The notes under the pieces: model-generated
Databases searched by the model: none
Told to the model about the DNA's origin: nothing
The model's input: only the letters and a program-made list of their open reading frames with translations
Shown here: positions 1-9,039 of the stretch, piece after piece
Layout: every line of letters begins with the position of its first letter
How positions within the stretch are numbered: the stretch's first letter is position 1
Virus record (IMG/VR): IMGVR_UViG_2645727555_000009
Span: 1-9,039 of that record
Length of the DNA stretch: 9,039 nt
DNA from: a virus
Taxonomy: Duplodnaviria > Heunggongvirae > Uroviricota > Caudoviricetes
Direction: 5' to 3' (one strand)
Program-made: the position numbers and the translations under genes

Positions 1-38
1 CGTGCGGGTGCGTTGAGGATGCCTGACACATCAGAGGT

Positions 39-60
39 GGCGAGGGATTTCTCCCTCGCC
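39..60 (-). other. Stable hairpin just downstream of the hok stop; possible mRNA 3'-end structure
   Basis: Perfect 9-bp stem GGCGAGGGA / TCCCTCGCC with a 4-nt loop, 7 nt beyond the hok stop on the transcribed strand. No U-run follows on either strand, so it is not a canonical intrinsic terminator. Confidence 0.3.
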
Positions 61-67
61 GGGTCTC

Positions 68-223
68 TTACTCCTCAGGTTCGTAAACTGTGAAGACAGC
101 GACCTCCGTCTGGCCGGTTCGGATTCGTACCTCGCAGAGGTCTTTCCTCGTTACCAGTGCCGTCACTATGACGGTTAAACAGATGACGATCAGGGCGATT
201 AACATCGCCTTTTGCTGCTTCAT
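68..223 (-). CDS. hokD: Hok/Gef family type I membrane toxin (HokD/RelF-like), 51 aa
   Basis: Translation from the internal ATG at 223 gives MKQQKAMLIALIVICLTVIVTALVTRKDLCEVRIRTGQTEVAVFTVYEPEE: a hydrophobic transmembrane helix followed by the conserved Hok periplasmic motif (RKxLCEVRIRTGQTEVA). It matches my recollection of E. coli HokD/RelF closely. AAGGAG lies 7 nt upstream of this ATG. The provided 70-aa ORF (68..280) is an in-frame upstream extension that may be a mok-like leader frame. Paralogue assignment is from memory, not a search. Confidence 0.85.
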   Translation of the reverse strand: MKQQKAMLIALIVICLTVIVTALVTRKDLCEVRIRTGQTEVAVFTVYEPEE

Positions 224-514
224 AGCCTGCTTCTCCTTGCCTTTCGGCACGTAAGAGGCTAACCTAGATTTGCCGTTCATAGATTGAGCCTCAGATTAAT
301 GTTAAGCGTCTTGCAGGACGCGTAATGTTAACTGGGGCTTTTCTCTATCTGCCTTTTGGTATTCATGCCTGAGACAGATAGCCTCAAGCACCCGCAGCAA
401 TTCTACTTAACTATCCTTTCCCCGCAAATCGTTTTTATCCCCAGCGACAAATCGAATACACCACCAGCGCCACCGCCATTGCGATCCCTACCGTTGTGAA
501 TGCCTCAGGCCAGG

Positions 515-859
515 TCATCGTAAAACATCCTCTGCGCTTATCAGTCCGTTTCGCTTCAGGTAGTCCATCGCCTTACCCGGCAATTTACAGTCCGGCTTCG
601 TTTTCCTCAGTTGCCAGGTTAACTGCTTTACCAGCATGGTTAACTCGTCGACCAGACGCTGATGTCCCACTGGTTTGTATTCATGCAATTTACCGGCTGG
701 CTCTGCTGCCAGCGATGCCAGTGCGATTTCCAGAACAGCAATATCCATCTTATATGTGCGGATGATGTCATGGTCGATTGTGCCCGGTATGCACAGTCTC
801 TGTGCTTCAATAGTCTCCTCTGCGTGAGCTATTAACTGCTCTCTGGTAAAAGTGGTCAT
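515..859 (-). CDS. Hypothetical small phage protein (114 aa), N-terminal paralogue of the 1373..1798 product
   Basis: ORF with a GAAGGAAG Shine-Dalgarno inside the upstream gene and an ATGA start/stop overlap with the 856..1371 gene. Its N-terminus ([20 protein letters not shown]...[10 protein letters not shown]) parallels MTELTKEQLIEEAKLKIAIAK...IALTSLEAEP of the 1373..1798 product, and the DNA around 690..730 resembles 1670..1710. Confidence 0.6.
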
Positions 860-1371
860 GCCGCGCTTCCTTCTTGCTTATTAACGATTACACCGTCATA
901 TATTTCATTAAGGTGTCCCCTCAACTCCATGCGCCTTAATGCAGACAACATGTAATCGCATTCAACCTGCTTATTTCCAGTAAATGGCTTATCGTCAGGA
1001 TCACCCCAACAGCAATTACCCTTGGGCCACCCATGTACTTTCCGTACTCTTCCGTTAACAACGTGAAGTAATCCCCAGCCAGGTGGTAAATCCTCAATTG
1101 AAATAATTCCCGGCTCACTAATAAAGAATCTCCAGTCGCCCATGCCAAGAGAGGGATTTTTACGGAAACGCTTTTTTCTATCTGCCAACAAGTCAGCACG
1201 AGAACACTTCGCCTCTATCAGGCATGATGCTGAATTTCTGAATCCCATAGCATCTGGTTGTTCTCCAGTACTGGTTACAGCAACAAAGCGGTCATGAAAG
1301 CAAACCTTGAACCCGTTGCGCTTAAGGAACCTGTACGCAATCTGACAGAGTTCGCGGTGTGTTAACGCCAT
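856..1371 (-). CDS. Putative PD-(D/E)xK nuclease-fold protein (Hjc / VRR-NUC-like N-terminal domain) with a Cys-rich C-terminal region, 171 aa
   Basis: The N-terminus has the layout helix ([19 protein letters not shown]), then GEQPD, then CLIEAK 11 residues after the PD, i.e. a PD...ExK motif as in Hjc/VRR-NUC resolvase-type nucleases. The C-terminal part carries several Cys (NCCWGD, ECD). Start is coupled to the upstream gene (GGAGAATGAGATG). Fold assignment is by motif recognition only. Confidence 0.5.
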
Positions 1372-1372
1372 C

Positions 1373-1798
1373 TCATTCTCCTTTGATGCGAATGTTTACA
1401 ACCTGACAAACCTCTTTGAGTACCCAGTCAACAGCGTCTTTCCACGCTCCAGTCTCAACTGGCGGATTCTCACGTTTTACTTGTTCATAGAAGTGCACAG
1501 CTTTAACCAGTCCTTCAGGTACTACAGGCACTGGCGGCATGCGATACAATGGAGTAACACAACGCGAAGCCTCATATTTATCTGACGGACGCTGAAATAT
1601 CTCACCGAACCCATATTTTTCAATATCTCGCAGTTCCTCGTCGTCAGTCCATGCCACCGGTTCTGCTTCCAGCGATGTCAGTGCAATTTTGAGTAACTCA
1701 CCCTCTACTCGTGCCACGCCTGAATTGGGATGGCATTTCGCAATCGCTATTTTTAATTTGGCTTCTTCGATTAATTGCTCTTTTGTTAATTCAGTCAT
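1373..1798 (-). CDS. Hypothetical small phage protein (141 aa), modular: N-terminus paralogous to the 515..859 product, C-terminus (…IRIKGE) shared with the 2228..2689 product
   Basis: ORF whose stop lies 1 nt before the next start. Shares an N-terminal ~50-aa module with the 114-aa protein and a C-terminal GxW…IRIKGE tail with the 153-aa protein. Confidence 0.55.
   Translation of the reverse strand: MTELTKEQLIEEAKLKIAIAKCHPNSGVARVEGELLKIALTSLEAEPVAWTDDEELRDIEKYGFGEIFQRPSDKYEASRCVTPLYRMPPVPVVPEGLVKAVHFYEQVKRENPPVETGAWKDAVDWVLKEVCQVVNIRIKGE
1377..1394. repeat. 18-bp exact direct repeat TCTCCTTTGATGCGAATG, copy 1, at the 141-aa/171-aa gene junction
   Basis: Identical 18-mer to 2256..2273. On the coding (minus) strand it reads CATTCGCATCAAAGGAGA, encoding the C-terminal RIKGE and supplying the AAGGAG ribosome-binding site for the next gene. 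Confidence 0.9.
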
Positions 1799-1893
1799 TT
1801 TTCATTACCGCTCTTTCTGGCGGCCTCCTGATGTTCTGAGGGTGCAGAAATCCCTCCGGCTAAGGATTAAATTTTTAACAGTTCTAAATTTAA

Positions 1894-2250
1894 CTATTCA
1901 GTTCTGGATTTTGTCGCCCTGCGTATCCGCGCTTTCGCGTTACGCTCAATCTGAATTAGCTTTTCTATATTTTTCCGTCTTTCCCGTTCCTCCTGACGCA
2001 ATAGCCTTACATCATCTGCCAGTCTGGTTTCTCTTTTCGCCACAGAGAGCATCCAGTCAAATGGCTCCACAACTGCGCCGCAGATTTTACAGCGGACCTG
2101 ACGCTCTTTTTCATCAACCCGGACAGAGGCGTGATGGCAGTATGGTCTTTCCGATGGCTCATAAAGAAAATTAACCTGATTACGCGGGTCATCCTCTTTT
2201 ACAGGAAATAAAACGATATTGCTTAACTCATCCTCTGGTTTTATTTCCAT
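1894..2250 (-). CDS. Hypothetical zinc-ribbon protein with a basic coiled-coil C-terminus (118 aa)
   Basis: Strong Shine-Dalgarno AGGAGAGGAG before the ATG at 2250. Contains CHH…(x16)…CKIC, a likely Zn-binding motif, and an Arg/Lys/Glu-rich C-terminal helix. No family recognised. Confidence 0.55.
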   Translation of the reverse strand: MEIKPEDELSNIVLFPVKEDDPRNQVNFLYEPSERPYCHHASVRVDEKERQVRCKICGAVVEPFDWMLSVAKRETRLADDVRLLRQEERERRKNIEKLIQIERNAKARIRRATKSRTE

Positions 2251-2689
2251 GCTCCTCTCCTTTGATGCGAATGCCAGCGACGCGTAATGCGTGTTCTAGG
2301 TCAATCAGGTAAAGCCAACTGCCATTTTCTTTAGGTATCATGACATGTCGCTCATCTGCATTTATCGGGTGTCCATATCGAAGGTCGTAGCGAGTCGGTA
2401 ATTGAACTTCCCGCGCTTCCAGTGCAGCAATACGCTTGCTCCCATCAGAGATAACGCCTTCGTAATACTCACGCTGCTCGTTGAGTTGTGATTTTGCTTC
2501 TTCCAGTCCATCCAGCAAATCAGCGATAATATCCGCTTCCCGATGACGGATGTGACGCTTAAACGCAGCAAGAGCCGCATCACAATCCCGTTCAGCATTT
2601 GGGCTGTCCGGGATAGCCTGATACCACGCCAGCGTCGACTGATAGTTTTGTGCTGCCTCACGAAGCGCCTCATAGTTAACCTCTCTCAT
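2228..2689 (-). CDS. Hypothetical phage protein (153 aa) sharing the IRIKGE C-terminal module
   Basis: GAGGTGG Shine-Dalgarno and ATG at 2689, with an ATGA overlap onto the upstream gene's stop. Its 3' end overlaps the next gene's start by 23 nt. Confidence 0.55.
   Translation of the reverse strand: MREVNYEALREAAQNYQSTLAWYQAIPDSPNAERDCDAALAAFKRHIRHREADIIADLLDGLEEAKSQLNEQREYYEGVISDGSKRIAALEAREVQLPTRYDLRYGHPINADERHVMIPKENGSWLYLIDLEHALRVAGIRIKGEEHGNKTRG
2256..2273. repeat. 18-bp exact direct repeat TCTCCTTTGATGCGAATG, copy 2, at the 153-aa/118-aa gene junction
   Basis: Exact match to 1377..1394; flanking DNA is not conserved. Confidence 0.9.
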
Positions 2690-2982
2690 TGAGCCACCTC
2701 CTGATAAATCACCGCATGCCCCAGTTTCTCCGCCAGTGCCAGCTCTGCCTTAGCGCCCGCTGACCGCTGCCAGCCATTCAGCATGTAAATCGCATCCACA
2801 CAACGAATCATTGCCATGCAAATATCCATGTAGTGCGGCTGTGTCAGCCCGTCCGGAAGTACTGCCGGGTTTAAGACGGTATGCCCTTCCCGTTTCAGTT
2901 CCTCTTCCGCCTTGTGAAACGCCTCACGGTTGAAATTTTCATATCCCGTCATTGGACCGGCAATATAAACTCTCACCCTCAC
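2686..2982 (-). CDS. DUF4406-like protein (nucleoside 2-deoxyribosyltransferase-like fold), about 98 aa
   Basis: Proposed GTG start at 2982, with AGGAGG 8 nt upstream and overlapping the upstream stop. The N-terminal motif VRVYIAGPMTGYENFN…VLNP is what I recall for DUF4406/NDT-like proteins. The provided ORF (to 3051) is probably over-extended at the 5' end. Confidence 0.55.
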   Translation of the reverse strand: MRVRVYIAGPMTGYENFNREAFHKAEEELKREGHTVLNPAVLPDGLTQPHYMDICMAMIRCVDAIYMLNGWQRSAGAKAELALAEKLGHAVIYQEVAQ

Positions 2983-3371
2983 TCCATCACCTCCTGAAAG
3001 TTTCCCCGATAGAACGCCAGCACACGCTGCATAACCTCGCTCTGGCGGCACTCACGACAAATTATGTTCTGCCATCTGTTGTAACGACGTATTTCTCCGT
3101 CAGGTAACTTTCGAATCAGTGTCGGGTCAGCAGCCTTCTCCGGTGTCTTACGCCATACGCGATACGCCTGCTCTGATGGAAATACCCCGCAATCAGAGAG
3201 CCAGACATCACCACAGGCCGCAAGCGCACCAGATAAACGACGAATAGCGGTCTTACTGACACCCGTTTTATCTGCCAGTTGTCGAAAAGTTTCTCGTCCG
3301 CTCAGGCGCACGAATTCCACAATGCGCGCCTTCACTTCTTCCCGCTCTTCCTGTGTAAATACTCTTGCCAT
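2979..3371 (-). CDS. Hypothetical helix-turn-helix protein (about 130 aa)
   Basis: ATG at 3371 preceded by GGAGGT; the longer ORF to 3386 begins with TTG and is less likely. HTH-like segment RETFRQLADKTGVSKTAIRRLSGAL, plus a CxxC near the C-terminus (ICRECRQ). Confidence 0.55.
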   Translation of the reverse strand: MARVFTQEEREEVKARIVEFVRLSGRETFRQLADKTGVSKTAIRRLSGALAACGDVWLSDCGVFPSEQAYRVWRKTPEKAADPTLIRKLPDGEIRRYNRWQNIICRECRQSEVMQRVLAFYRGNFQEVME

Positions 3372-3386
3372 AAGTACCTCCGGCAA

Positions 3387-4157
3387 TCACTTTTCCGACA
3401 CAATACGACTGGAGGAATCGACAATCTGTCGAACAATATCCTGGTGCTTGTTCAGCTCACGCAGCGCAGCACAGACTCGCTCCCACTTCTGAACCTGACC
3501 TTTTGCCCGGCGCAGTTCGCGGTTAGCCACATGCAGCGATGGTAAAATCAGACTATCCGGATGCTTTCTGGTGAACGACGGCTGTGACTGCACTGTGACC
3601 GCCACACTTTCAGTTTTAATTTCTTCCTGTGTTTCCGCTTCCCGGACTGGTAACGCAACACCTGCTGGCTGAGGAAAGGCTTTACCATCGGTTTCCGTTA
3701 CCGATGCAGCTTCCGGCTCTGCCGGTAAATCAGCGCCCGGTATGCAGTAACGAAATTTACCGTTCTGATTTACGCGTGCCAGGCGCCCCGTTGCTGTTAC
3801 GACCGCCAACGTGGAAGCAACCTTGCGAATGCTAACACCGAACTTATCCGCCACTTCCTCACACGTTTTAGCCCCATCCTGACAGATAAACTCAATCATC
3901 ATGTCCGCGGTAACTTTTTGTTCGACCTCCCCGGTCAGCACATCCGGTACTTCAGACTGTGCTGGCTGCTCTTCGGTTACCCCGGATTCACCTTCACCAG
4001 CCAGAAACCAGGTGTGACCCGTTTTATCAACAACGCCATTTTTTTTGAGTTCCCACAGTTCGTTGAGAACTTCTTCACGGCTGATATCAAGCCGCGCCGC
4101 CAGTTCAACAGAATTGGCTTTACCCATCGCTTTCAGTGCATGCAATACGGTTTCCAT
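3387..4157 (-). CDS. Hypothetical phage protein with two winged-helix-like modules separated by acidic linkers (256 aa)
   Basis: GGAGGAAG Shine-Dalgarno before the ATG at 4157. Residues 1-45 ([37 protein letters not shown]) and about 85-135 ([33 protein letters not shown]) both resemble wHTH DNA-binding modules, separated by E/Q/T-rich low-complexity linkers. Confidence 0.6.
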
Positions 4158-4186
4158 TAAAACTTCCTCCGGATAAAAATTACTTC

Positions 4187-4927
4187 TCAGTTCCTGTGCT
4201 GGCTGACGTTCGGACGCCAGCTCTCCCAGTTAAACGTCACCCAGCGACCACCGTTCATGACCATGCGGTCCATCACACGCTCGCCAAGAAGCGTACTCAT
4301 CGCTACGTGGTTCAGGTTCGTCAGCATTCCGACACTACGCATCGAAGCCGTTCTGCGGTCGACTATCTGGTTCAGTGTGACCTGCTCGTTGCGCGTATCC
4401 CGCTGCATTCCGATTTCATCCAGGACAAGCAGGTCAACATCACACAACCCCTGTAAAAATTTTTCGCCTGAGTTTTTGTTGTCGTAGCTGTTGTGTAACG
4501 CCAGCATCACATCAGCCACCGTTATCACAATCACGCTGCGACCTTTCGCCAGAAGATGATTGCCAATGGCGGCTGCAAGGTGGTTCTTTCCGGTACCCGG
4601 CTTACCGCTGAACACAAAATTCGTGCACCCTGTCATCAGTTCGTCAGCGATGGATTTTGCCTGGCTCAGCGCATGTTTTTGCCCGTCGTTCTGCACCTGA
4701 TAATTCGCAAACGAGCATTTGCTGTGCAGAGGCTGGATGCCCGAACGATTCAGGATTTTTTCCACCCGCAACTGGCGATTCTGGCGGTTGATCTCCTCGC
4801 TACGTTTTCGCCCTTCTGCCAGTTGCCACTCGCGCCACTCGTCCACTGTCCGGTACGGCGCGATTACATGCTGCGGGGTCAGCTTACGGATACGCTCAAG
4901 AACACCACCTGTCGCGATATTTTTCAT
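4187..4927 (-). CDS. DnaC-like AAA+ helicase loader (phage P-protein functional analogue; YdaV/IstB-like ATPase)
   Basis: Walker [16 protein letters not shown] and Walker [10 protein letters not shown], 246 aa, AGGGGGTAA Shine-Dalgarno, lying immediately downstream of the initiator gene. Confidence 0.85.
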
Positions 4928-4933
4928 GGCCCG

Positions 4934-5899
4934 TTACCCCCTGAACCCCGGCGGAATTTCGGTATCCGGCTCAGAAATATGATTCACGCAACGCTGTACA
5001 GACGAACGCCCCAGGCGGATAACCAGTTCATCCCATTTTTCGCGAAGCTTTGACGGACTCATGATATTTTTTACCCAGAATGGATCCCGCTGCGCCCGAC
5101 CAAACATTTCACAAATTTGTCTGTGAGTTCTGCCATCCAGCATCCGCATTGTGCGCACGTCGTTGGCCCATGCGGTCCAGTTGGGTTCTTTCGGTCGCGA
5201 AATCTCGCCATCATCGCTGGCGGCCTGCTCGTAAAGACTCACGATTCGTCCCCAGATCCACTGCGCACACGCCAAATCTTCCTGGTTGCCCCACTGGCGT
5301 TTTTTTGCACTGAACACAACCGCGTCAGGGTGTCGGGTTAAAAAATCCTGTTCAACCGTCTGCGGGTCCGGTTGCGAAGCTTCCGGACGAGAAGTGTTTT
5401 TATTCTCTGTAGTAATCTCTGTTGTATTCTCTGTAAGATCATCAGGCCATTTTGACCCGATGACATTGAGTCGTTTTGAACCAATGGAACGTGCCATTTT
5501 GGCCCCTTCCATCGTGTCATTCTGACCTGATGGAGCAGCGCATTTTGACCTGATGGATTCGCTCACTTTGCCACCATTTAAAAGCTCGCTCTCGTAATTA
5601 ATCGTGTAAAAATTAGTCATATCACGCTTTGATTTATTGAGCTTTTCGCAACGCAAAAGCCCCAGCGTTTTCAGACTTGCAAATGCGCGTTTTAACGTTG
5701 ACTCTGACCAGAACGGGAACTGCTCCAGCCATTGTTCTGTTGTGTTATAAATCCAGCGAACACCATCACATTCCATGCCGGAACCGGTATCTCTCAACCA
5801 GTAATGCAACTGCTGCAACACGATGGCTTCGTTCAGACCAATTTTCATCGCCAGCTGCGTGTTTATAACCAGCGGACGTTCAGCAAAAAGGAGCTTCAT
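4934..5899 (-). CDS. Phage replication initiation protein (lambda O-like / YdaU-like), with the origin iterons inside the coding sequence
   Basis: Long ORF upstream of the DnaC-like gene. ATG at 5899 (MKLLFAERP…); the provided ORF extends to a TTG at 5923 that overlaps the ydaT stop. Five iterons lie inside the coding sequence, encoding the repeated IGSK peptide. The C-terminus is the type typically fused to helicase-loader-recruiting initiators. Confidence 0.75.
   Translation of the reverse strand: MKLLFAERPLVINTQLAMKIGLNEAIVLQQLHYWLRDTGSGMECDGVRWIYNTTEQWLEQFPFWSESTLKRAFASLKTLGLLRCEKLNKSKRDMTNFYTINYESELLNGGKVSESIRSKCAAPSGQNDTMEGAKMARSIGSKRLNVIGSKWPDDLTENTTEITTENKNTSRPEASQPDPQTVEQDFLTRHPDAVVFSAKKRQWGNQEDLACAQWIWGRIVSLYEQAASDDGEISRPKEPNWTAWANDVRTMRMLDGRTHRQICEMFGRAQRDPFWVKNIMSPSKLREKWDELVIRLGRSSVQRCVNHISEPDTEIPPGFRG
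5448..5558. repeat. Putative phage replication origin: five iterons (consensus CATTTTGACCTGATGGA) with about 23-bp periodicity, followed by a moderately AT-rich segment (5560..5640)
   Basis: Iteron starts at 5448, 5472, 5495, 5518 and 5541 (spacing 24/23/23/23). The two best copies are CATTCTGACCTGATGGA (5518..5534) and CATTTTGACCTGATGGA (5541..5557). The layout matches a lambda-type origin embedded in the O gene. Confidence 0.7.
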
Positions 5900-5908
5900 C
5901 CCCCCCCC
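5900..5908. repeat. Homopolymeric tract (C9 on plus, G9 on the coding strand) directly abutting the initiator ATG
   Basis: Nine consecutive C at 5900..5908. On the minus strand this is GGGGGGGGG immediately 5' of the ATG at 5899, or inside the coding sequence if the TTG at 5923 is the start. Confidence 0.9.
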
Positions 5909-5919
5909 AGAACACGTTA

Positions 5920-6345
5920 TCAATGCGCCACCACGGCATTTCCCGCCGGACCACCACGATTCATCTGATCGAACAACACGATCGCTGCCGCAACAAACTC
6001 ATCGATATCTTTCACCAGGCGCTCCCGTCGCTCGACAAGCTCCCGGTGATATTCCGAACTGTGGCTGCGCATTCGGGCCACCAGTGGAGGCGGCATTGCT
6101 TTTTCGATCGCCGGTAACAACGCCTGAATTTTTTTAACCGCATCAGGGGTGTCTTTTTCTACCCAGCGGAAAATTTTCTGGGTATTACGAGACAGGGCTT
6201 CCGGATGGCTGTCGTCATACAGTTCAGGAAACGTCATACCCAACTCAAAATAAGCCTGGGTTATTCCAGCTACTGGAACTTTTTCGCCATCAGGACGCGC
6301 CCAGGCATTCATTGCCATGCGGATGTGTTCATGCTTGATTTTCAT
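5920..6345 (-). CDS. ydaT: YdaT-like protein (proposed cII functional analogue of Rac/CP-933P-type prophages), 141 aa
   Basis: Sits second in the rightward operon, directly after the Cro-like gene and before the replication genes. Its size and N-terminus (MKIKHEHIRMAMNAW…) fit my recollection of the YdaT family. Family assignment is from memory. Confidence 0.55.
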   Translation of the reverse strand: MKIKHEHIRMAMNAWARPDGEKVPVAGITQAYFELGMTFPELYDDSHPEALSRNTQKIFRWVEKDTPDAVKKIQALLPAIEKAMPPPLVARMRSHSSEYHRELVERRERLVKDIDEFVAAAIVLFDQMNRGGPAGNAVVAH

Positions 6346-6604
6346 GAATCACCCCCGCCTCTGGTTGTGTGTTAGCCTGATACTCGACAGGTAAGCCGTC
6401 GGTTGGGTTGGGATAAGTACTGCCATCAATCTCGTGCGGAGTTACTATCCAGCCTGTTGCTTCGCACCAGCGTAAAATTTTTTTCCCCGTAAGTTTCGCC
6501 CGTCCGGTAATGACATGGCTTACCATCCCTTGGGTTACCCCAACAATTTCAGCAAAATGCTTCTGAGTTATACCGGAATGATGCAAATATTCTCCAAGAT
6601 TCAT
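6329..6604 (-). CDS. ydaS: Cro-like HTH regulator (YdaS/DicC-type), 91 aa
   Basis: First gene of the rightward operon, divergent from the repressor gene. HTH segment ITQKHFAEIVGVTQGMVSHV; GAGGTGA Shine-Dalgarno 5 nt before the ATG at 6604. Confidence 0.65.
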   Translation of the reverse strand: MNLGEYLHHSGITQKHFAEIVGVTQGMVSHVITGRAKLTGKKILRWCEATGWIVTPHEIDGSTYPNPTDGLPVEYQANTQPEAGVIHENQA

Positions 6605-6615
6605 TGTTCACCTCA

Positions 6616-6628
6616 TGTGATGTCATCA
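6616..6628. promoter_or_regulatory. 13-bp perfect palindrome GTGATG-T-CATCAC in the ydaS leader / transcription start region
   Basis: Perfect dyad symmetry about 12 bp upstream of the ydaS start codon. A candidate operator, possibly for Cro-like or YdaT autoregulation, or a leader hairpin. Confidence 0.4.
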
Positions 6629-6634
6629 CGATCA

Positions 6635-6676
6635 TTAATAGCATTGTTATTTTTAAAAGTAAATAGCATCACTATT
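6635..6676. promoter_or_regulatory. Operator pair (OR-like) in the divergent promoter region: two 17-bp sites of type AATAG-N5-CTATT, centres 25 bp apart
   Basis: Site 1 TAATAGCATTGTTATTT (6635..6651) and site 2 AAATAGCATCACTATTT (6660..6676). Both are internally palindromic and match a third copy at 7759..7775. They overlap candidate minus-strand promoter hexamers: TTGAAA / TTTAAA and TTTACT / TATTAA. Confidence 0.6.
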
Positions 6677-6711
6677 TCAAAGAGATTAATAATCTTATTA
6701 GAATTGAAGGT

Positions 6712-7212
6712 ATGAAAAGAAAATCCCTGTCAGAGATCGACCTGCAAGCCGCCCAGAGACTGAAAGAAATCTGGACGGCGAAAAAAAATCAACTAGGGTT
6801 AACCCAAGAGCGTGCGGCAGAAATTCTGGGATTTTCGACACAGGGAGCTGTAAGCCATTATCTAAATGGTCAGACACCTTTAAATCTTGAGGCTGTTATC
6901 AAGTTCGCAGGGTTGCTGCAAGTTCCTCCCGAGTCAATCAGACCAGATATGGCCGAGTTGTTACAAATTGTAAGGATGTATCCCCAAGAATCTGGGGAGG
7001 ACAATGTTGTCACTATATCTGCAGATATGGAACAATCGGAAAACGAACTTCCGTTTAATATAGACCCCATGGAGCGGGATTTGCTCCAGACGTTCAGGGC
7101 TTTCCCCAAAGAAGATAAAGAGAAAATGCTTAAGGAAATGAAGGAGAAAAAAGAATCAATTGAAGAAATCGTTGCGCGATGGCTAGCTGCGCAAAAGGGT
7201 CGTCGCGCCTAA
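6712..7212 (+). CDS. paaR2: Prophage repressor at the cI position (PaaR2-like HTH_XRE regulator), 166 aa, lacking a LexA/S24 autocleavage domain
   Basis: N-terminal HTH (LGLTQERAAEILGFSTQGAVSHYLNG), divergent from the Cro-like gene. The C-terminus is E/K-rich with no Ser-Lys peptidase motif. It is followed by an antitoxin/toxin pair, as in the O157:H7 paaR2-paaA2-parE2 locus. The gene symbol is a recollection-based assignment. Confidence 0.6.
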   Translation: MKRKSLSEIDLQAAQRLKEIWTAKKNQLGLTQERAAEILGFSTQGAVSHYLNGQTPLNLEAVIKFAGLLQVPPESIRPDMAELLQIVRMYPQESGEDNVVTISADMEQSENELPFNIDPMERDLLQTFRAFPKEDKEKMLKEMKEKKESIEEIVARWLAAQKGRRA

Positions 7213-7229
7213 TCTGAGGAGGTAAAAAC

Positions 7230-7421
7230 ATGAGTACAGCCCTTTCCCCGATAATTTCTGAATTTGAAACAGTCGAACAAGAAAACAGCTATAACGAATG
7301 GTTGCGAACCAAAGTGGCAGCAAGCCTCTCAGATCCCCGTCCTGCAATTCCACATGACGAAGTAATGGCTGAAATGGAAAACCTTATTGCTCAATTAGCT
7401 GCAACGAACAGGAGTGAGTAA
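7230..7421 (+). CDS. paaA2: Small antitoxin of a ParE-type toxin-antitoxin module (PaaA2-like), 63 aa
   Basis: Strong GAGGAGG Shine-Dalgarno; 63 aa, acidic; its stop overlaps the toxin start (TAATG). Size, position and sequence (…SEFETVEQENSYNEWLR…PRPAIPHDEV…) fit my recollection of PaaA2. Confidence 0.6.
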   Translation: MSTALSPIISEFETVEQENSYNEWLRTKVAASLSDPRPAIPHDEVMAEMENLIAQLAATNRSE

Positions 7422-7711
7422 TGCTGCCCATTTTATGGCTACCTTCTGCACGTGATGATTTACGTCAGATCGTAGCCTATATTGCTAAGGAAAACCCTCC
7501 CGCTGCACGTAGACTAAAAATACGCATTGAAACATCAGTTTTGTCACTTACTGAACACCCTTATCTGTACCCACCGAGCGAAAGAGTTCCAAGTCTTCGT
7601 GAGATAGTGACTCATCCTAACTACATAATACTTTACCGAGTAACAGCATCTAACATCGAGATCGTAAATGTAGTTCACTCACGAAGACAGTATCCAAACA
7701 AAACCTGTTAA
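7421..7711 (+). CDS. parE2: ParE/RelE-superfamily toxin (ParE2-like), 96 aa
   Basis: Translationally coupled to the upstream antitoxin by a 1-nt overlap. The sequence has the ParE-family pattern (…LRQIVAYIAKENPPAARRL…YRVTASNIEIVNVVHSRR). Confidence 0.7.
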   Translation: MLPILWLPSARDDLRQIVAYIAKENPPAARRLKIRIETSVLSLTEHPYLYPPSERVPSLREIVTHPNYIILYRVTASNIEIVNVVHSRRQYPNKTC

Positions 7712-7725
7712 TCCTTCCTGTCAAC

Positions 7726-7748
7726 AACCACCTTCGGGTGGTTTTTTT
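7726..7748 (+). terminator. Rho-independent terminator after parE2
   Basis: Stem AACCACC / GGTGGTT with a TTCG loop, followed by a T7 run (7742..7748), 15 nt after the parE2 stop. Confidence 0.75.
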
Positions 7749-7758
7749 CTTGCCACGA

Positions 7759-7801
7759 TAATAGCACTACTATTTACATAATTAAATAGTAGTGGTATTG
7801 T
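7759..7801 (+). promoter_or_regulatory. Operator pair (OL-like) overlapping a candidate pL-like promoter for the ydfA-ydfB-ydfC-dicF operon
   Basis: Site 3 TAATAGCACTACTATTT (7759..7775) and site 4 AAATAGTAGTGGTATTG (7784..7800), centres 25 bp apart as in the OR pair. Candidate -35 TTTACA (7773..7778), 17-bp spacer, -10 TATTGT (7796..7801). Together the sites form a 30-bp palindrome (7765..7794). Confidence 0.55.
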
Positions 7802-7980
7802 TCATTCATCAACCCACCCCGCCCCACAGAACGCCAGGCAATACTTCGAGTTACCCGGCAGTGGTCAGGGGTTAAGTAGCCAGCCCGAGGCGTAAGAACA
7901 TGACGGCAGGGTTCAACTTTAATAACTATGCAGCAGTTTTTTGTTCCGCTACCCCGGCGTTAAGGGGAAATGAGGTCAGC

Positions 7981-8136
7981 ATGGATACTATCGATCTTGG
8001 CAACAACGAATCTCTGGTGTACGGCGTATTTCCAAACCAGGACGGCACGTTCACCGCAATGACGTATACCAAAAGCAAAACGTTTAAAACCGAAAATGGT
8101 GCCCGTCGCTGGCTGGAAAGAAACTCAGGTGAGTGA
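7981..8136 (+). CDS. ydfA: YdfA-like small protein (51 aa), first gene of a dicB-type operon
   Basis: ATG at 7981 with a GAGG Shine-Dalgarno. The 51-aa product (MDTIDLGNNESLVYGVFPNQDGTF…) matches the size and context of Qin-prophage YdfA. The longer ORF from 7900 is probably an artefactual extension. Confidence 0.65.
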   Translation: MDTIDLGNNESLVYGVFPNQDGTFTAMTYTKSKTFKTENGARRWLERNSGE

Positions 8137-8137
8137 T

Positions 8138-8266
8138 ATGGATTTCGACACAATCATGGAAAAGGCTTACGAAGAATACTTCGAAGGCCTTGCCGAAGGC
8201 GAAGAAGCTCTCAGCTTCAGTGAGTTTAAACAGGCGCTTTCCAGTTCGGCAAAATCTAACGGCTGA
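8138..8266 (+). CDS. ydfB: YdfB-like small protein (42 aa)
   Basis: ATG at 8138, 2 nt after the ydfA stop, with an AGGTGA Shine-Dalgarno. Encodes MDFDTIMEKAYEEYFEGLAEGEEALSFSEFKQALSSSAKSNG. It is not in the provided ORF track because it is too short; the size matches YdfB. Confidence 0.55.
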   Translation: MDFDTIMEKAYEEYFEGLAEGEEALSFSEFKQALSSSAKSNG

Positions 8267-8295
8267 TAAGCGAAACAGCACCGCGAGGAATCAGT

Positions 8296-8514
8296 ATGCA
8301 GAAACGAGAACCCGTCATCATCGCGCCAGACTATACCGATGATGAACTTTATGAGTGGATGCGCCAGAAAATTAATGCAGCGCAGGATCTGAAATGGGCT
8401 AATGAAGCCAGGGCTAAGCAGGCTGAAAATCTGTCCGCTCTGGAGCAGGATATCACCAGGCTGGAAAAAGCAGCGGCATTAAGCATTGCCAGAATGATTA
8501 CATACCCGCGTTAA
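8296..8514 (+). CDS. ydfC: YdfC-like protein (72 aa)
   Basis: GAGGA Shine-Dalgarno and ATG at 8296; 72 aa with a coiled-coil-like C-terminus. Position matches ydfC of the dicB operon. Confidence 0.6.
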   Translation: MQKREPVIIAPDYTDDELYEWMRQKINAAQDLKWANEARAKQAENLSALEQDITRLEKAAALSIARMITYPR

Positions 8515-8854
8515 TAGCTAACCAACGAAGCTAAGGTTGGTAATTAAGGAGTTCTCCACGGGTGAGGTGGAGTGCGTGCGCCGGACACGGGTGAGCATCC
8601 GGCACTGACAGTTTACTGAAAGGATATTTCCATGAAAAGTCAGACCATAACGCGAAAGCGCACGGCGAGGTAGCTGGTTCATAGATAACCTGTCGTTAAA
8701 TTTTCGTCGACCGTGCGCTTCCGGTTGTGGCACTCCGCGAAATGGCGCGGCGGTAAGTATGGCGGGGTTATTCCTTCCCCGTTGAGGACATCGGGTTGTC
8801 AGGTTGACCATACGCTTAAGTGACAACCCCGCTGCAACGCCCTCTGTTATCAAT

Positions 8855-8912
8855 TTTCTGGTGACGTTTGGCGGTATCAGTTTTACTCCGTGGCTGCTCT
8901 GCCGCCCTTTTT
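8855..8912 (+). ncRNA. dicF: DicF small RNA (prophage-encoded inhibitor of ftsZ translation) with its intrinsic terminator
   Basis: TTTCTGGTGACGTTTGGCGGTATCAGTTTTACTCCGTGGCTGCTCTGCCGCCCTTTTT matches my recollection of E. coli DicF with about one substitution. A GGCGG…CCGCC terminator stem is followed by a T5 run. It lies downstream of ydfC as in the Qin dicB operon. Confidence 0.8.
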
Positions 8913-9039
8913 AAAGTGAATTTTGTGATGCGGTGAATGCGGCTCAGCGCACGCGGAACAGTTAAAACCAAAAACAGTGTTATGGGTGGATTCTCTGTAT
9001 CCGGCGTTAATTGTTAACTGGTTAACGTCACCTGGAGGC

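Follow-up and report, generated by a model that had tools for sequence, protein, structure and literature searches.

The 9,039-bp stretch of DNA analysed here (positions 1 to 9,039 of the Caudoviricetes record IMGVR_UViG_2645727555_000009 in IMG/VR; called the window throughout) comes from a lambdoid Escherichia coli prophage, of which it forms the immunity and early region. It carries four 17-bp palindromic sites in two pairs, one between a cro-like gene and a divergent repressor gene and the other beyond the repressor operon. They are very likely operators bound by the prophage's own helix-turn-helix (HTH) regulators, as parts of an immunity switch resembling that at the right and left operators (OR and OL) of phage lambda. 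The 166-aa repressor itself probably binds all four, and the Cro-like protein YdaS almost certainly shares them, so that they are not the repressor's alone. The sites and the two regulator genes are listed below, with promoters (PR, PRM, PL) named after their lambda counterparts and scores taken from the weight matrix described in the next paragraph.

6636..6652, OR1, TAATAGCATTGTTATTT, 22.6 bits, overlapping the -10 hexamer of the leftward promoter PR
6661..6677, OR2, AAATAGCATCACTATTT, perfect core, 21.0 bits, overlapping the -35 hexamer of PR by 3 bp and that of PRM by 2 bp
6684..6700, putative weak OR3, GATTAATAATCTTATTA, centred 23 bp from OR2 and overlapping the -10 hexamer of PRM
7759..7775, OL2, TAATAGCACTACTATTT, perfect core, 20.4 bits, overlapping the -35 hexamer of PL by 3 bp
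7784..7800, OL1, AAATAGTAGTGGTATTG, 17.9 bits, overlapping the -10 hexamer of PL by 5 bp
6329..6604, minus strand, Cro-like gene with a YdaS-type HTH, 91 aa
6712..7212, plus strand, repressor gene, 166 aa

The four 17-mers were first quoted in a reading made from the letters of the window alone (the sequence-only reading), and all of them are present. The coordinates given there are exact for the second pair, and those of the first pair need to be moved 1 nt further right; the proposed centre-to-centre spacing of 25 bp holds in both pairs (centres 6644/6669 and 7767/7792). The AATAG-N5-CTATT core was likewise described correctly, except that its five inner positions are not free and are largely fixed as GCA-n-TGC. 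Two of the sites (OR2 and OL2) match the core perfectly and two match it with one mismatch. When the whole window was searched with at most one mismatch, these four were the only matches, where 0.21 would be expected, and none of 200 dinucleotide-preserving shuffles gave four matches (highest count, 2). Allowing two mismatches added three matches, all in coding DNA and all at chance level (3.21 expected in all). The same search was applied to a 41.7-kb stretch of an O104:H4 chromosome, comprising host flank and a prophage that is 99.9% identical to the window over 6300-8000. It returned two stray matches with at most one mismatch besides the four operators, one within an exonuclease gene and the other within a host gene, which is near the chance rate. 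Coding regions of the window and of the O104:H4 stretch thus do not carry the motif at a density similar to that of the operator regions. A weight matrix trained on the sites of other loci, leaving out the window and its close relative L003, scored the four sites at 17.9-22.6 bits, and the next best position in the window reached 7.3 bits.

A protein search found 31 relatives of the repressor, and eight further loci (L003 and L005-L011), with regulators 46-89% identical to that of the window, were compared. The search for the motif in related prophages that the sequence-only reading had proposed was thereby carried out, and all eight loci carry the paired motif. Together with the window they contain 38 sites with at most one mismatch, from which the fuller consensus AAATAGCAnTGCTATTT was derived. 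A pair of sites 24-27 bp apart lies downstream of the repressor operon in 8/8 further loci (9/9 with the window), and a pair 24-25 bp apart lies between cro and the repressor gene in seven of the eight, only one site passing the cut-off in L009. OR1 is kept in both position and sequence in L003, L005-L008, L010 and L011. The sites persist across loci while spacers and flanks diverge.

Between the two clusters lies a slot for cargo genes, which in the window is occupied by a toxin-antitoxin pair and closed by a terminator:

7230..7421, plus strand, PaaA-family antitoxin gene, 63 aa (PF21217, E 1e-21; PaaA2 structure 3zbe, E 2e-22)
7421..7711, plus strand, ParE toxin gene, 96 aa (PF05016; ParE2 structure 5cw7, E 5e-36)
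7726..7750, plus strand, intrinsic terminator closing the repressor-paaA-parE operon, conserved in relatives

The slot also holds PaaA-ParE in L003, L010 and L011, HigB-HigA in L005, a HipA-like gene with a DUF3037 gene in L007, essentially nothing in L006 and L009, and another gene elsewhere. The motif is found at both positions whatever cargo intervenes. This bears on an explanation in which the sites are autoregulatory operators of the PaaA-ParE complex, as in a classical type II system with conditional cooperativity. The OR sites do stand upstream of the operon that contains paaA and parE. This explanation is nevertheless highly improbable: PaaA has no DNA-binding domain and matches only the PaaA2 "stability determinant" family, both pairs of sites are also present with HigBA, with the HipA-like gene or with no cargo, and the second pair controls another operon, that of ydfA.

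Four heteroimmune loci in which the gene order is kept but the DNA-binding domains are of other kinds (L001, L002, L004 and L015) contain no matches to the AATAG motif. At OR and OL alike, each of them has a repeat peculiar to itself, set within flanks that all four conserve. The repeats are ACAATAAAAAACTGT / ACAGTTTTTTATTGT in L001 and L002, of the ACACTTTTAAAG type in L004, and GTTTAGTG in prophage CP-933P (L015). These separate repeats between the same flanks imply at least four immunity types within the PaaR family. The CP-933P locus was located with a 61-mer built from published primers. L001, which is also from an O157:H7 strain, had been a candidate for it and was rejected, as its regulator starts with MMSALE and ACAGTTTTT/AAAAACTGT are found in its own repeats. 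L001 is probably a paaR1-type locus.

Alignment of the window with L001 shows 62-100% homology except in two islands. The first, 6420-7070, corresponds to the HTH of the Cro-like protein, OR and the N-terminal domain of the repressor, and the second, 7670-7820, to OL and PL. Both operator clusters have thus been exchanged along with the DNA-binding domains, as immunity determinants would be. The same exchange speaks against binding of a host transcription factor in place of a prophage protein. Nothing specific favours a host factor beyond the action of OxyR on the related racR-ydaS region of Rac (PMC11879457), and the motif and the prophage-encoded DNA-binding domains change together from one prophage to another within the same host species, although these prophages are homologous in other respects; there is very little chance that this explanation is correct.

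The repressor is a mosaic of a lambda-CI-type DNA-binding domain and a PaaR-type C-terminal domain. Its N-terminal domain (residues ~2-90) is joined by a disordered linker (91-112) to a two-helix C-terminal domain (119-165). Residues 2-90 match structures of the lambda cI N-terminal domain in a phmmer search of the PDB (E 9e-10 to 5e-9). An AlphaFold model of the repressor, with a mean predicted local distance difference test (pLDDT) score of 76 and values of 86-94 over residues 11-80, has five helices in the N-terminal part. Its best Foldseek matches in the PDB are the lambda cI structures 1lli, 1lmb and 1rio (template modelling score 0.81-0.93, root-mean-square deviation 1.1-2.8 Å, 35-39% identity), among them an operator complex (1lmb) and a complex with sigma region 4 (1rio). 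By both searches, the 166-aa protein that the sequence-only reading had singled out as an HTH protein has a genuine lambda-CI-type DNA-binding domain. All 7 PDB matches with E <=0.01 are lambda cI chains and none is a PaaR2 structure; a literature search for a paper on PaaR2 crystallisation gave nothing relevant. Over its last 44 residues the repressor shares 55% identity with PaaR2 of CP-933P (E 3e-16); no other part of the two proteins aligns, similarity between their DNA-binding domains being undetectable. A Pfam scan of the repressor gave no match to the S24 peptidase domain (PF00717), and RecA-mediated, SOS-dependent cleavage is therefore not expected.

The recognition helix of the repressor is TQGAVSHYLN, and its basic N-terminal arm is KRK. 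In the alignment of relatives, G45-A46-V47-S48-H49-Y50 is invariant down to 46% overall identity, and T43, Q44, L51 and N52 are invariant or nearly so. The helix of the Cro-like protein is nearly the same (V-T-Q-G-M-V-S-H-V, against S-T-Q-G-A-V-S-H-Y in the repressor), and (T/S)QG(M/Y)(V/I)SH is common to the Cro-like proteins of every motif-bearing locus. In 434 and P22, like in lambda, repressor and Cro share operators. A further explanation would assign the sites to YdaS only and have the 166-aa protein read another sequence or mainly regulate the toxin-antitoxin pair, and it fits the presence of YdaS homologues with this helix beside the motif in every locus examined. It is improbable, if somewhat less so than the other alternatives considered here, since the TQGAVSH helix of the repressor is almost that of Cro and is invariant at 46-100% identity, no second repeated motif that could serve the repressor was found in OR or OL, and the repressor and Cro of CP-933P share their operators (PMC8630535).

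The first pair of sites lies in the divergent cro/repressor promoter region, as had been proposed; this is a 107-bp intergenic region (6605-6711) holding OR1, OR2 and the weak OR3. The second pair lies upstream of ydfA, just past the parE terminator, again as proposed, except that the ydfA operon is leftward only by the lambda map and is on the plus strand here. The overlap of the sites with candidate -35 and -10 hexamers was also borne out, with the same geometry at PR and PL:

6635..6640, minus strand, candidate PR -10 hexamer TATTAA, found by eye; TATTAA(T) is conserved in relatives
6658..6663, minus strand, candidate PR -35 hexamer TTTACT, with a 17-bp spacer; relatives have TTTACA or TTGACT
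6676..6704, plus strand, PRM-like promoter from a promoter scan, TTCAAA, 17-bp spacer, TAGAAT
7773..7801, plus strand, PL-like promoter from a promoter scan, TTTACA, 17-bp spacer, TATTGT, with TG before the -10 hexamer

Relatives have (CTA)TTGAC and TATTGT at the PL positions. At both PR and PL the -35 hexamer is overlapped by 3 bp by O2 and the -10 hexamer by 5 bp by O1. All three promoters share one plan, in which the terminal T residues of one operator open the -35 hexamer and the right half-site of the next supplies most of the -10 hexamer (CTATT-GT or CTATT-AA). The repressor ATG follows the PRM -10 hexamer after 7 nt and lacks a Shine-Dalgarno sequence; the repressor mRNA is therefore predicted to be leaderless, as that of lambda cI is known to be. 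The arrangement TA(G/A)AAT, 6-7 nt and ATG without a Shine-Dalgarno sequence is found in all relatives. PL is predicted to drive ydfA, ydfB, ydfC and DicF.

The overlap with promoters raises the question of whether AT-rich promoter sequence or a local duplication gave rise to the repeats as a side effect, with no role for them as operators. Within the half-site are the -10-like TATT and the -35-like TTTAC, conservation of the promoters alone would keep part of each site because the hexamers overlap it, and the two OL sites are largely inverted copies of each other. Against this, conservation extends beyond the hexamers to the promoter-distal half-sites and to the inner GCA/TGC positions, and the sites are retained while spacers and flanks diverge. 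The heteroimmune loci keep functional-looking promoters at these positions with entirely different repeats, and the shuffled sequences did not reach four matches. An origin of this kind without operator function is very improbable.

Its position suggests that OR3, which the sequence-only reading had overlooked, makes OR tripartite rather than a simple pair. In the window the site is degenerate (three core mismatches, 5.9 bits) and its assignment comes from positional homology, the equivalent position in L005, L007 and L008 being GATTAGTAAAACTATTA, with one core mismatch. A third site was recognisable at OL neither in the window nor in the relatives.

Several points count against the assignment of the sites as operators of an OR/OL switch. 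For this immunity type the assignment rests on sequence and comparison. The repressor and Cro types occur together in every locus examined, so that the comparison cannot separate the two binders. The PR hexamers match 8/12 consensus positions and fall under the promoter-scan threshold, and OR3 taken alone is non-significant, its 5.9 bits lying below the median best score of shuffled sequence (7.1 bits). The sites behind the matrix were chosen by the same core pattern, which introduces some circularity at the fixed positions, though not at the inner GCA/TGC positions or in the flanks. Oligomerisation through the C-terminal domain is extrapolated from PaaR2, with which the domain shares 55% identity over 44 residues.

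From the arrangement of sites, promoters and protein domains we infer the following scheme of binding, order of occupancy, cooperativity, PRM activation and OR-OL looping. A dimer of the 166-aa repressor would bind each 17-bp palindrome through its lambda-CI-type HTH. Because every promoter is built on operators, occupancy of O1 and O2 would exclude RNA polymerase from PR, which serves ydaS, ydaT and the replication genes, and from PL, which serves the arm with ydfA, DicF and dicB. Repressor at OR2 would probably stimulate its own PRM, much as at OR2 of lambda, and the weak OR3 over the PRM -10 hexamer may shut PRM off at high repressor levels. Neighbouring dimers, 25 bp or 23 bp apart, could be held together by the PaaR2-like two-helix C-terminal domain, and the same domain possibly joins OR and OL by looping out ~1.1 kb. 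This part of the scheme is proposed because PaaR2 is reported to form octamers, and the chances that the domain supports cooperative binding or OR-OL looping, as the sequence-only reading had implied for cooperativity, are about even. YdaS, with its almost identical recognition helix, very probably competes for the same sites and could thereby create bistability, and YdaT, the analogue of CII, would act at its own box (6335-6352).

The closest studied system is prophage CP-933P (Sp12) of E. coli O157:H7. There PaaR2 is the CI analogue and YdaS the Cro analogue, as established by electrophoretic mobility shift assays and DNase I footprints on the 97-bp OR intergenic region, and a PL-type promoter beyond parE2, with similar operators, is repressed ~100-fold by either protein (PMC8630535). 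The paaR2 mRNA is leaderless, PaaR2 assembles into octamers and the locus shows bistability (Jurenas et al., mBio 2021, PMC8630535); PaaA2 lacks a DNA-binding domain, and PaaR2 is not expected to undergo SOS-dependent cleavage (PMC8630535). The window resembles CP-933P in its regulator-PaaA-ParE gene order, its Cro-like YdaS, and its YdaT with a YdaT box. The two also share a short divergent operator region (107 bp here and 97 bp in CP-933P), a second operator/promoter cluster past parE, a leaderless-looking repressor start and the lack of an S24 peptidase domain. Unlike the repressor of the window, PaaR2 has 123 aa and starts with MQKKE, and the alignment of the two is confined to the final 44 residues; the Cro-like proteins also differ in their N-terminal HTH part. 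The operators of CP-933P are 18-bp repeats with the half-site GTTTAGTAA, whereas the consensus here is AAATAGCAnTGCTATTT. With at most one mismatch, GTTTAGTAA does not occur in OR or OL of the window, and its sole match in the window lies within parE (7548-7556), at chance level. The different operator sequence and DNA-binding domains imply an immunity specificity different from that of CP-933P. The lambda-like OR/OL layout put forward in the sequence-only reading is upheld by the same motif at PR/PRM and PL, by the CI-type HTH of the repressor and by this precedent. Another candidate for the closest system, RacR of the K-12 prophage Rac, was rejected, since its published operators differ and the regulator of the window is not RacR.

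With lambda itself the window shares a homologous N-terminal domain of the repressor, in which the basic arm is kept, 17-bp pseudo-palindromic operators, a second operator set at PL, and cargo genes behind the repressor gene, in the position of rexAB. The centre-to-centre spacings of the lambda OR sites are 24 and 23 bp, compared with 25 and 23 bp in the window. Lambda OR2 is centred at about -42; here OR2 likewise touches the PRM -35 hexamer, and its centre lies 43 bp ahead of the ATG of the leaderless-looking repressor gene. Lambda cI contacts sigma region 4 through E34 and D38, with which E33 and E37 of the repressor align; both positions are acidic in relatives too. The operator sequence differs, the half-site of the lambda consensus being TATCACCGC, and lambda has three OL sites where two are recognisable here. 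The C-terminal domain of lambda CI is of the S24, LexA-like type, whereas that of the repressor is a PaaR-type two-helix module of ~50 residues; the S24 domain defines lambda CI itself and not all lambdoid repressors. The Cro-like protein is of the HTH_3 (XRE) type and is related to the HTH of the repressor, as in 434 and P22, unlike the Cro fold of lambda, and CII is replaced by YdaT.

Two other regulators have N-terminal domains 52-55% identical to that of the window, namely the CI of the Stx2a phage Lyz12581Vzw (genus Oslovirus) and a DicA-like regulator of Rac-SA53. Lyz12581Vzw has the helix TQGAVSQLLN and a perfect AATAGTCTAGCTATT in its cI/cro intergenic region; its CI differs from the repressor of the window in having a normal LexA-type (S24) C-terminal domain. 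Rac-SA53 has the helix SQGTVSQYLN and sites shifted towards ATTAG-N5-CTAAT. The cargo genes of both differ from those of the window. In these two systems the motif appears to drift along with the recognition helix. No published operator mapping for Lyz12581Vzw or Rac-SA53 was found in the literature searched.

The same switch logic has already been described in lambda and, in combination with this gene architecture, in CP-933P; the window is a heteroimmune type of the switch studied in CP-933P, and current understanding is not overturned. No paper dealing with this repressor, its operator consensus or its mosaic make-up turned up in searches that included the RefSeq accessions of the regulator and of the Cro-like proteins. 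A concrete operator consensus (AAATAGCAnTGCTATTT) and a promoter map are now available for one immunity type. The PaaR-type switch is modular, the same C-terminal domain and cargo slot being combined with at least four sets of DNA-binding domains and operators, and the slot being filled with PaaA-ParE here and with HigBA, a HipA-like gene or nothing in more distant relatives.

A broader and more doubtful idea is that the repressor is a natural domain swap that recreates the full lambda logic on a C-terminal module unrelated to that of lambda and without a RecA-cleavable domain. It would require pairwise cooperativity at 25/23 bp, stimulation of a leaderless PRM by way of E33/E37 from a site at about -43, and OR-OL looping, and that all of these hold together is rather unlikely. 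If they did, induction would need some trigger other than RecA cleavage.

The region is carried over at least 80% of window positions 6300-8000 by ~72 of 5,426 complete E. coli genomes (~1.3%). The carriers include strains of the O104:H4 outbreak lineage, and relatives occur in Shigella, E. albertii and Salmonella. Other features of the early region, and those of the PL operon, are as follows:

5920..6345, minus strand, YdaT gene, CII analogue (Pfam PF06254; PHROG "CII-like transcriptional activator", E 1.9e-46)
6335..6352, YdaT box at the ydaS/ydaT junction, TTGATTTTCATGAATCAC, one mismatch to TTGATT-N6-AATCAA
7981..8136, plus strand, ydfA (DUF1391), first gene of the PL operon (PF07151, E 1.7e-28), so annotated in related genomes
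8856..8907, plus strand, DicF small RNA (Rfam, 75 bits)

The genes that read leftward on the minus strand include, besides the ydaS-type and YdaT genes, an O-like and a DnaC-like gene. YdaT of CP-933P binds TTGATT-N6-AATCAA at the ydaS/ydaT junction, its high-affinity OM site (PMC9986795). The box is perfect at the same position in L001, L003, L004, L010 and L015 and has one mismatch in L002, and its retention suggests a PRE-like promoter controlled by YdaT. Downstream of ydfA lie ydfB, ydfC and then DicF, and DicF is placed under predicted PL/OL control because of this position. The PaaA and ParE proteins of the window are closer to those of L001 than to those of CP-933P.

OL2 and OL1 are inverted copies, 94% complementary with their central bases included (7760-7799), whereas OR1 and OR2 are direct copies. 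A 12-bp "terminator-like" hairpin reported by a scan at 7765-7794 consists of the facing halves of OL2 and OL1 and was not retained as a separate feature. The extended OL palindrome is not kept in L003 or L016, and the inverted-copy relation is lost in L003 and in the O104:H4 copy, where OL2 is TAATAGCACTGCTATTT. A 13-bp perfect palindrome, GTGATGTCATCAC (6617-6629), was considered as a further operator and rejected. It sits at the predicted start of the PR transcript, directly upstream of the ydaS Shine-Dalgarno sequence, and it is probably non-regulatory because L003 and L011 do not conserve it despite their near-identical Cro and repressor proteins.

Some relatives of the repressor, 240-255 aa in length (P0013-P0022 in alignment A1; L007 3001-3735 and L008 3001-3768), carry two different HTH domains in tandem, one of the lambda-CI type and one of the PaaR1 type, ahead of the same PaaR-type C-terminal domain. 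OR and OL of these loci have AATAG-type sites only, with no match to the L001-type repeat ACAGTTTTT. The 244-aa tandem-HTH relatives may act as repressors of dual specificity and thereby protect against two types of phage at the same time. In L008 the called start of the 255-aa regulator (MISKTIRMTT..., 3001-3030) falls inside the predicted OR3 and PRM -10 hexamer, and translation probably begins at the ATG further downstream (MKRKS...), which is the start in the other loci.

From PL to ydfA runs a 175-nt leader (7806-7980) that is 94-98% identical to that of the heteroimmune L001 and visibly conserved in L002, L004 and L015. A structured RNA in this leader, such as a put-like antiterminator, was considered and found no support, with a fold z-score of +1.4 and no Rfam match up to E 1. 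The motif CATCAAC, right after the PL -10 hexamer, recurs even in distant relatives. At the other end of the window, positions 68-393 of the minus strand hold a hok/sok type I toxin-antitoxin module, with an Rfam match to sok at 218-393 (112 bits) and a Hok-like 70-aa open reading frame at 68-280.

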